A stretch of 23,294 nucleotides of DNA from IMG/VR virus record IMGVR_UViG_2579778702_000001; one strand, given 5' to 3'. Below, piece by piece: positions 4,728-7,700 of the stretch. Position 1 is the first letter of the stretch. Each line of letters begins with the position of its first letter. The notes beneath the pieces were generated by a model. The model did no database searches. It saw nothing but the letters and a program-made list of their open reading frames with translations, and was not told where the DNA came from. The translations under genes and the position numbers were made by a program. Source of the DNA: a virus. Lineage: Duplodnaviria; Heunggongvirae; Uroviricota; Caudoviricetes.

Positions 4728-7700
4728 TCAGCTAATCGTGATGCCTGCAGTGGCTTTCTTCATCACCACAACCAGCAAATCGCTGATACTTGCTGTGGGA
4801 TACCAGTTATTTACCAGCCATGCTGACACCGAAAACTCCAGTGTCATGTGACCGTGACCGGCAGGCATATCAATAACACCACTGTAAATCAGCGTATTAT
4901 CCAGCGCGGTACGGTTATAAATTTCAGCACCGTTTTTCCGCACTATCAGACGGCATGAGGAGTAAATATCAGTATGCTCTTTCTCATGTTTAGCGCCGCT
5001 GAATGCCACCGCCGGAATAACAATCTGCCGGTCAAACGGCTGATCGTCATAAACCCTGACGGTAATGGTCCCTGATGGCCACCGCTCCGGTGCACGGGAG
5101 TCCCGGGGGAAAGCTTTGCCCACTGTTTTAACGAGATCGCCTTCAATCTGGTTCGCGGACAATTTTCCCAGAACCCGACAGTTCTCGTTAATCGTGACGT
5201 TGTTGAGCGTCCCGGAGTTCGCATTCACGTTACCGCTGATATCGGCATTTTTCGCCGTCAGCCGCCCGTCCGGTGTCAGGGAAAATGCCGGTGGATTTCC
5301 ACCGCTGGTAATGGTGGGGGCCGTCAGGCGTTTCAGGAACACGTCGTTCATGAATATCTGATCGCCCTGACCAACAAACATCGGTTTTGTGTTGCCATTC
5401 GCAGGATTAACCATCGCAATCCTGTCCGCCGCCAGCAGCACCTGACTCTGCATGCCGTCAGGGGTGTTCTCAATACCGGCACCGATACCCGCAATATAAA
5501 GGCGTCCATCCTGCATCTGCTGCAGCTTCACAGCCCACATGCTGTTCAGATTATTATTTGTATCAACCTGAACCTTCTGTATCTGCTGGATCGCTGCACT
5601 CTGGTCTTCCAGTTTCTTATTGACGGTCTGTGTGATTTCATTGCTGACATCCGTAATGGATGTCCTGATTTCAGCCAGGTCAGGCGCAAGCTGACCGTTA
5701 TCAATCTGCGTCCACAGCTCCTGAGCCAGATGGGTTTTCCCTATCTCGCCTTTGAAAAAATCCAGATAGCCGGATGCGTCATCACTCGGCTGACCAACAG
5801 CCTCCACGAATGCCGATTTGCCAACGGTGTTCACACTGCGAACGTAAAAATAATAATCATGGCCCGGCCTGATATTGATACTGGCGGCTATCCAGTACAG
5901 CGCCGTGCCAAGATAACGCGCGCTGGTTTCAACCTGCCTGATATCCGCAATCCGCGTTTCCGAGAACCAGAACTCAAACTGTACCGTCGGATCATAAACC
6001 GCAAGATGCGGCGTGGCGGTTATCTGAAAATAGCCCGGCGTCAGCTCAATCCGCGACGGCGCTGCCGGTGCGGCAATCCGGAACGATACCGACGCCGGAT
6101 CGCCCTGCTGCCCCCAGGCATTTGCCGCCCGGACTGTCAGCCTGTAGTTTCCTGGCGCCAGTTGCGTGAAGCGGTATGTGGTTTCCGTCGTCCGGGCCGT
6201 GCTGACCAGCCGCTCACTGCCGTCATCCGCTGCCACGGTCAGGCGAAGCATAAAGCTCACCCCCTTCACCACCTTCGGCGTGTCCCAGCGCGCCAGCACC
6301 TGGTATTCCCCGCTGTCTGCGGTGACTTCTGCGGTCAGGTGCTGTACTGCTGGCGGCGTGACGCCATTCACCGTGCCGCTCTGGTCGCCGTCAAAGTGCG
6401 CCCCGTTATCCACGATGGCCTCTTTTGCCGGTACATGCTGCACGGCGGTGATGGCATACGTGCCGTCGTCATTCTCACGGATACTCACACAGCGGAACAG
6501 GCGCTGGCGCAGCGTCGGCAGCTTCAGTCCCCACACGCTGTATCCGGCAACGCCGTCAGGAACACGGCTCACTTTCACCTTCACGCCGTCGGTGACGGAC
6601 TGGACCTCCACGCTCACCGGATTACCCTGCCCGTCAACCAGGCTTATCAGCGTGGTGCCGGAGGATGGCAGCGTGATTTCACGGTCGAGCGTCAGTGTCC
6701 GCGTCTGGCTGTTCACCGCCAGCACGCGCCCGCCGGTGCTGATACCCGCATAGTCATCATCACAGATTTCAATGACATCGCCCGGTACATGGCGAAGCCC
6801 TTCTGCGCCCACGCTGAAGTCCACGGTCTGCGTTTCCAGCAGCTCCGTTTTAATCAGCCACAGCCCGGCGCGGTGTGCCTGCCCCCGGCTGGTACAGCCA
6901 AAGGCGTCCATCTTCGTGACGTTACGACCATAACGGGCAATGGCCCGCGTGTCCTCCACAAGCTCTGTCGCCGTCTCCCAGCCGTTGTTCGGGTCAATCC
7001 AGTTCACCTCAACGGCATTATGGCGGTCCTTCAGGGCGCTGAAGCTGTAGCGGAACGGCGCGCCATCATCCGGCATCACCACATTACTGCGGTTATAGGT
7101 CCACACCTTATCTGATGGTCGGTCCTGCACGAACGTCAGCGTCTGCCCGTTCCATACCGGCATACAGCGCATCGCCGAGCAGAAATCACTGAGAACATCC
7201 CACGCCTTACGCTGTGTGGTCAGCCAGGCATTACAGGTGATGCGCGGCTCCGTGCCGCCAAAACCGTCCGGCACCGACTGGTCGCAACACTGGCCGATGA
7301 CATACAGCGCCCATTTATCCACATCTGCCGCACCAAGACGTTTACCCATGCCGTAGCGCGGGTGGGTCAGCATATCCCACAGACACCAGGCCATGTTGTT
7401 GCTGTATGCTGGCTTAAACGTTCCGTCCCAGATACCGCTGTATTGCCGCGTCTGCGGGTTATAGTTCGACGGCACCTGCAGAATACGCCCGCGAAGATGA
7501 TAATTACGGCTCACCTGCTGGCTGCCGAACTGCTCCGAATCCACCTGTACGCCGACCAGTGCCGTGTTCGGGTAGCACTGCTTCACATCGATGATTTCGG
7601 TGTATGACGACCAGAGCGTTTTGTTCTGCAGCTGGTCTGTGGTGCTGTCCGGCGTCATCCTGCGCATCCGGATGTTGAACGGGCGCGGCGGCAGATTATC

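Follow-up and report, generated by a model that had tools for sequence, protein, structure and literature searches.

Gene J and Its Genomic Context

The window considered here is the whole of a 23,294-nucleotide (nt) stretch of DNA from a virus of the class Caudoviricetes (IMG/VR virus record IMGVR_UViG_2579778702_000001), and its gene J, which encodes the tip attachment or central tail fibre protein, is the subject of this work. According to the list of open reading frames (ORFs) and the translation, J is intact and encodes 1159 amino acids (aa) on the minus strand. Six Pfam families are found in the protein (Phage-tail_3, FNIII-A_GpJ, Ig_J, Ig_J_second, Phage_Tail_Tip, and Ig_GpJ_C); all of them exceed their curated cut-offs, and their order is that of lambda. 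The gene context is also of the lambda type. The tail genes lie 5' of J, where the ORFs are full length and of lambda-like sizes, and lom, the side tail fibre gene, and a tail fibre assembly gene follow on its 3' side. In addition, a prophage of Escherichia coli TW10828 that is 95.5% identical to the window is annotated with the full lambda late-gene order. The Pfam set and its order, the flanking genes, and the annotation of this prophage identify the gene as J and the window as a lambdoid prophage late region.

An earlier, sequence-only reading of this DNA had singled out the distal part of the gene (positions 4728–5750) as the place where J departs from lambda. These coordinates are correct and correspond to aa ~820–1159 and the stop codon. 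The analysis presented below describes J as a three-module mosaic of an already known kind, the receptor-binding tip of which is most likely directed at the porin OmpC.

The Modular Structure of J

By BLASTP, J is 83% identical overall to lambda gpJ (1132 aa, NC_001416), and the identity differs from segment to segment. In the first 815 residues, 789 are the same (97%; 26 substitutions), which bears out the view that J follows lambda for about 800 residues and then diverges. Over aa 816–905, identity falls to 26 of 62 positions, and a further 28 residues have no lambda counterpart. The segment at aa 906–949 agrees with lambda at 26 of 44 positions and with phage 21 at 42 of 44. A conserved block had been noticed between the diverged parts and is indeed present, since aa 950–981 are identical to lambda throughout (32/32); the adjoining aa 982–1009 agree at 24 of 28 positions. 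The last 150 residues (aa 1010–1159) are as loosely lambda-like as had been thought: 62 of 145 positions are identical (43%), with 11 gap columns, which is far below the level of more than 90% that had been named as speaking against a diverged tip.

Two substitutions in the upstream part of J, Y307C and Y328W (about window nt 7224–7289), are absent from lambda, phage 21, and PhiR55_1. Through the former, two cysteines become adjacent (QCCDQS) in the hub region of J. In lambda, the hub region of gpJ has been described as holding a 4Fe-4S cluster (PMC11101478).

The mosaic profile of the gene comes from a sliding comparison, at the nucleotide level, with lambda, phage 21, PhiR55_1, and VT1-Sakai. 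Up to about nt 2390 of J, the identity to lambda is 89–98%, compared with 57–94% to VT1-Sakai (below 90% before about nt 2160). Between nt ~2400 and ~2900, the identity to lambda is 31–62%, while that to phage 21 is 94–97% and that to VT1-Sakai is 89–93%. A short stretch then follows in which all the compared sequences converge and the identity to lambda is 88%. The last ~490 nt of J are 99–100% identical to VT1-Sakai and 47–58% identical to lambda and phage 21.

J is thus a mosaic of three modules. The first, comprising the tail-tip hub and the FNIII domains in the first 815 aa, is lambda-like. The second, of the following ~150 aa, is the allele of phage 21 and of most E. coli prophages, with a shaft that is 28 residues longer. 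The third, made up of the last 167 aa, is the allele of VT1-Sakai, the PPompW prophages, and many phages carrying Shiga toxin (Stx) genes. Judged from the alignments, the conserved block at aa 950–992 is the likely recombination joint, where modules could plausibly be exchanged by homologous recombination. Shaft and tip occur in independent combinations: in phage 21 the long shaft is joined to another tip, and phage 2G7b has a J of lambda length (3396 nt, aligned in two pieces) with the present tip at 98.7%. Among the top-ranked matches listed, the identity of complete E. coli genomes to the 23-kb window as a whole does not exceed about 95.5%, whereas each J module is found elsewhere at 99–100%. 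The combination of modules therefore appears to be absent from the collection of complete E. coli genomes.

The relationships to the two reference phages follow this pattern. Lambda gpJ (PDB 8iyk, 8xcj, 8xck) has the same domain order, gene context, junction block, and Ig-like C-terminal family as the J studied here; it differs in its shorter shaft, its receptor (LamB), and its tip. Phage 21 J (OL657228) is about 95% identical to it at the nucleotide level over J nt 1–3100, with the long shaft (88/90 aa) and the upper fibre (42/44 aa) in common, but only 68% of the last 150 aa are identical. The features of the gene and its surroundings are listed in Table 1.

Table 1. Positions of J, its segments, and neighbouring features in the window.
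Feature	Position	Strand	Remarks
Gene J, tip attachment / central tail fibre protein	4728–8207	-	Assigned by ORF, Pfam, and 83% identity to lambda gpJ
Lambda-like module: hub domains and two FNIII/Ig domains, aa 1–815	5763–8207	-	97% identical to lambda (789/815 aa)
Long allele of the alpha-helical shaft, aa 816–905	5493–5762	-	28 aa longer than that of lambda; 88/90 phage 21, 90/90 PhiR55_1
Central straight fibre (beta-prism) part, aa 906–1009	5181–5492	-	Pfam Phage_Tail_Tip at aa 872–1000; 42/44 phage 21
Conserved junction block, aa 950–992	5232–5360	-	32/32 lambda identity at aa 950–981; the profile switches partner here
Segment equivalent to the gpJ 1A2 donor part, aa 993–1159	4731–5231	-	Distal fibre and receptor-binding domain, assigned to OmpC
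Ig-like receptor-binding domain proper, aa 1029–1159	4731–5123	-	Pfam PF12421 Ig_GpJ_C, E = 5e-37
Variable loop DSRAPERW, aa 1036–1043	5079–5102	-	4 aa longer than in A8/phi330/21 alleles; aligns with phi330 T918–Y921
Variable loop E-KEHTDI, aa 1075–1081	4965–4985	-	5 aa shorter than in A8/phi330/21; aligns with phi330 E953–S962
Loop VNNWYP, aa 1132–1137	4797–4814	-	Aligns with phi330 hairpin A1015–P1020
Terminator-like hairpin directly 3' of the J stop codon	4690–4709	-	8-bp stem with 6 G-C pairs, followed by TTTTT
lom	4055–4660	same as J	Downstream of J; Pfam Lom family
Side tail fibre gene, 934 aa	1187–3991	same as J	Downstream of J; Pfam phage_tail_N
Tail fibre assembly gene	651–1184	-	Pfam Caudo_TAP

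The Tip Module and the Chimera gpJ 1A2

The third module has already been used experimentally. Brödel et al. (Nature 2024) fused the C-terminal parts of natural gpJ variants after residue 964 of lambda gpJ (PMC11338833). This residue, the glycine that closes the conserved ...NADISG motif, is the equivalent of G992 in the J studied here and lies inside the junction block. The sequence of one such chimera, gpJ 1A2, is available in the supplement of that paper, where the recoded DNA is machine-read and contains dropped bases. A plain tblastn search of the J tail against this DNA broke into frame-shifted pieces, and a frameshift-tolerant protein-to-DNA alignment was used instead. Over aa 950–1159 of J, 192 of the 198 readable columns are identical to 1A2. 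All six mismatches fall in visibly corrupted text, and two of them would be in-frame stop codons within a working gene. The identity of J to the second chimera, A8, is 69% in this alignment. As aa 993–1159 agree with 1A2 at every reliably readable position, this part of J is concluded to be the 1A2 donor module, from which a small number of genuine substitutions, perhaps one at F1069, may set it apart. The two proteins differ upstream of the tip, since 1A2 carries the first 964 aa of lambda gpJ with the short shaft, while the J of the window has the long shaft and 26 substitutions in its first 815 aa.

Evidence for OmpC as the Receptor

The functional properties of the two chimeras have been published. 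The gpJ variants were screened on a lamB-deleted recipient (PMC11338833), and 1A2 and A8 were then assayed on a lamB/ompC double deletion of MG1655 that carried one of 23 plasmid-borne OmpC variants; for 21 of these 23 variants, delivery by 1A2, A8, or both was efficient (PMC11338833). A8 works on both K-12 and EDL933 OmpC, while 1A2 is efficient on the EDL933 variant only (PMC11338833). In the double-deletion K-12 strain, 1A2 delivers DNA when the OmpC of E. coli O157 EDL933 is supplied, but not when the OmpC of K-12 is supplied (PMC11338833). The same group later aimed 1A2 at O157 strains, and all 121 such strains in their collection have a single OmpC variant.

Related alleles are also associated with this porin. 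In the PDB, A8 gpJ 713 (9wca, 9wcb) matches the last 340 aa of J best, ahead of lambda gpJ (8xcj/8xck). A search with K-12 OmpC found that entry 9wcb, besides A8 gpJ, holds three chains of an OmpC variant, so that the complex of A8 with OmpC has been solved. The receptor-binding domain of phage phi330 is identical to that of A8 at 149 of 151 positions, and phi330 does not plate on an ompC deletion of BW25113 unless the deletion is complemented (PMC12502783). Two independent studies, one of a natural phage of enterohaemorrhagic E. coli (phi330) and one of an engineered protein (A8), have therefore assigned OmpC to one allele. Over the last 150 aa, J has 68% of its residues in common with phage 21, 62–63% with A8/phi330, and 43% with lambda; the phage 21 tip itself is closer to A8/phi330 (81%). 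A statement about the receptor of phage 21 was not found in its genome announcement.

Because its last module is the same as the 1A2 donor part, the tip of J, a trimer of Ig-like domains, most likely docks on the trimeric porin OmpC rather than on LamB. By analogy with 1A2, it would most likely prefer an OmpC like that of O157 EDL933 and work poorly on the OmpC of K-12. The native protein, with its long shaft and its upstream substitutions, would be expected to behave like the chimera. The possibility raised in the sequence-only reading, namely that the tip uses a different receptor, is thus supported by the match to 1A2 and by the OmpC dependence of the A8 and phi330 alleles.

The loops of the tip can be placed by comparison with phi330. 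In an AlphaFold3 model of that phage, two hairpins contact OmpC: E953–S962, which points into the barrel, and A1015–P1020, which lies at the rim (PMC12502783). A further loop, T918–Y921, is equivalent to, but shorter than, a contact loop of phage 434, and it is apparently not predicted to touch OmpC (PMC12502783). Relative to A8/phi330, the tip of J has a 4-aa insertion at aa 1038–1041 and a 5-aa deletion after aa 1075. These changes affect two of the three loops discussed in connection with OmpC docking, and they would fit a shared receptor with a different preference among OmpC variants. While A8 and phi330 bind OmpC, including that of K-12, and have the C-terminal strand in common with J, the alignment places the present tip as an allele that is related to theirs and yet distinct.

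The host records of natural phages are consistent with the 1A2 result, although this is weak and circumstantial support. For the six ECOR-derived PhiR phages that have this tip, the recorded hosts are E. coli C or ECOR13, and MG1655 is not among them. No paper on the ECOR-derived PhiR phages was found, and a broader literature search on ECOR13 likewise returned none. A receptor-prediction preprint from 2026 treats the GpJ of Drexlerviridae and excludes the tip of lambda, so it was not used here.

Several points weigh against the assignment to OmpC or limit its precision. The functional data were obtained with a chimera that has the short shaft of lambda, from which the receptor of the native J is carried over. 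The window covers only prophage late genes and thus carries no information on the OmpC type of the host. Lysogens frequently have the variant of the receptor on which their prophage depends. The loop assignments depend on a sequence alignment to a description by another group of an AlphaFold3 model. The structure prediction of the tip that the sequence-only reading had suggested was made with single-sequence AlphaFold2 (aa 982–1159), but the mean predicted local distance difference test (pLDDT) score of 50 was too poor for a usable fold. Finally, 11 of the 209 columns of the machine-read 1A2 sequence are unreadable owing to errors at single bases and 6 mismatch, and one of the mismatches (F1069 read as L) could be real.

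The Helical Shaft

In lambda, the segment that follows the second FNIII domain is the alpha-helical shaft, a three-helix bundle (PMC11101478). It tops a beta-sheet prism known as the central straight fibre, the end of which is formed by the Ig-like receptor-binding domain (PMC11101478). When lambda binds LamB, the shaft turns over through about 180 degrees, with residues 841–861 refolding to beta-strands (PMC11101478). The stretch at aa 816–905 of J is a long allele of this shaft. Among 5426 complete E. coli genomes, 3566 contain its DNA, and 2636 contain that of the short lambda allele.

The stretch had been described before as coiled-looking, about 90 aa in length, and as replacing a shorter lambda segment. 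Single-sequence AlphaFold2 (aa 806–905) predicts helices at aa 811–836 and 842–899 with a break at NGQLAP, and the block-mean pLDDT is 82–96 over aa 846–895. The model is of a monomer, so the helix ends are uncertain and may be overextended. Nevertheless, it supports a helical character for the stretch. In a fixed-register heptad test, the best register had a hydrophobic fraction of 0.57 at a/d positions compared with 0.27 elsewhere, and 1009 of 5000 shuffles scored as high. The solved helical shaft of lambda is also non-significant in this test (483/5000 shuffles). The earlier description is broadly right with respect to a longer helical segment; a canonical heptad coiled coil is not called here. 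Because the test fails both for J and for the solved lambda shaft, the term "helical" is preferred, with no claim of a proven coiled coil.

If fully helical, the 28 extra residues would add about 4 nm to the closed fibre (28 x 0.15 nm). The 1A2 and A8 chimeras are functional with the short shaft of lambda (PMC11338833), which implies that the long shaft is not needed for the new tip. As the shaft flips and partly refolds when lambda opens, its length could affect the reach of the tip through O-antigen or capsule, or the ease with which ejection is triggered; such a non-neutral role is conceivable but rather unlikely. If it were true, the length of the shaft would be a second, as yet unstudied determinant of host range or kinetics that assorts independently of the tip.

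Proposed Mechanism and Alternative Explanations

In the mechanism proposed here, the trimer of Ig-like tip domains of J would bind trimeric OmpC, preferably of the EDL933 type, and this would presumably trigger the sequence of events that has been solved for lambda. In that phage, binding of the receptor makes the three tip domains spread and the prism twist; the shaft flips, and the tube opens (PMC11101478). By analogy, the tip of J would spread, its beta-prism would twist, its helical shaft would flip, and the tube would open, so that the native J with its long shaft may open on OmpC as lambda does on its own receptor.

Two other receptors have to be considered. The tip could still bind LamB, in a variant form from non-K-12 strains, as the sequence-only reading had offered as its second option; the common fold family (Pfam Ig_GpJ_C) and the 43% identity to the LamB-binding domain of lambda would be compatible with this. 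This option is left unsupported by the published work, as the 1A2 chimera was selected on a lamB-deleted recipient and works without LamB, its delivery into the lamB/ompC double deletion depended on the OmpC variant supplied (PMC11338833), and the closest other alleles bind OmpC. Binding to a LamB variant is accordingly highly improbable. Somewhat less improbable, though still unlikely, is a tip that binds OmpC together with another porin, such as OmpF, PhoE, or OmpN, or that in some hosts mainly uses the latter. Lambda J gains OmpF through a few point mutations (PMC11101478), these porins have the trimeric barrel in common, and the published tests of 1A2 varied OmpC only (PMC11338833). On the other hand, delivery by 1A2 has not been reported into K-12 with its own OmpC, a strain that still has OmpF (PMC11338833), and the published work gives no support to a second receptor.

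A different kind of explanation is that J belongs to a decaying prophage remnant, in which case its divergence from lambda would reflect drift and not a working module. The homologous J of VT1-Sakai is annotated as split by mutation, and many copies occur in polylysogens, in up to 8 places per O157 genome. Against this, the ORF is intact at 1159 aa, the surrounding lambda-like late genes are all full length, and many independent proteins of E. coli and Shigella have exactly the same C-terminal 360 aa. Moreover, the plaque-forming phages PhiR55_1, PhiR5_1, and 2G7b have this tip, and the module is functional once grafted onto lambda (PMC11338833). Decay thus has very little probability, and a working tip that docks on OmpC is preferred.

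Other Features of the Window

The terminator-like hairpin (Table 1) sits between J and lom, and phage 21 has an annotated terminator at the equivalent spot after J. For these reasons, lom may be transcribed separately from the tail operon. Small ORFs that overlap the J region (e.g., 4946–5224 on the minus strand and 5065–5361 on the plus strand) are without any support.

At the left end of the window, two tail fibre assembly genes, 95–622 (+) and 651–1184 (-), face each other, both with Pfam Caudo_TAP. Their 5' ends form a 159-nt inverted repeat that is 73% complementary. The TW10828 prophage has, just past the equivalent of the left end of the window, an alternative fibre-tip gene and a recombinase fragment of 195 nt. 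The arrangement resembles what would remain of an invertible tail-fibre segment like those of Mu, P1, and e14. The G+C content is 0.41 at window positions 1001–2000 (3' part of the side tail fibre gene and the assembly gene), compared with 0.55–0.63 in the other late region, and this drop suggests that the distal fibre module was acquired separately.

Prevalence of the Tip and Its Significance

Of 5426 complete E. coli genomes, 3378 contain the DNA of the tip; it matches at ≥99% in 993 records, and a single O157 genome can have it in as many as 8 places. The DNA of the LamB-type tip of lambda (lambda 4452–4904; compare window 4728–5180) is found in 98 of the same 5426 genomes, in all cases at ≥99%, and the listed examples are laboratory strains. 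The tip of J is the commonest J tip among E. coli prophages, and the LamB tip of lambda is the rarity. At the protein level, 12 phage records (13 with P-EibA), VT1-Sakai and the PPompW prophages among them, have exactly these last 150 aa, and dozens of O157 Stx1a/Stx2a phages have them at 98% identity. A homologue search with the last 360 aa returned only E. coli and Shigella fragments that were 96–100% identical, which gave no depth for a structure alignment. VT1-Sakai, the Stx1 prophage of O157 Sakai, has an identical tip in a J that is annotated as split in two, and some copies of the tip therefore lie outside working genes.

The module is already known: the receptor assignment of this tip has been published, and the structure of its closest relative has been solved. 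It has also been exploited for the delivery of DNA to O157 strains, and no new biology is claimed for it. The value of the assignment lies in annotation. The J tip of this allele can be annotated as "OmpC, EDL933-type preference" and not as LamB by analogy with lambda. Since the LamB tip is so rare (98 compared with 3378 genomes), lambda is a poor default for receptor prediction in lambdoid prophages, Stx phages included.

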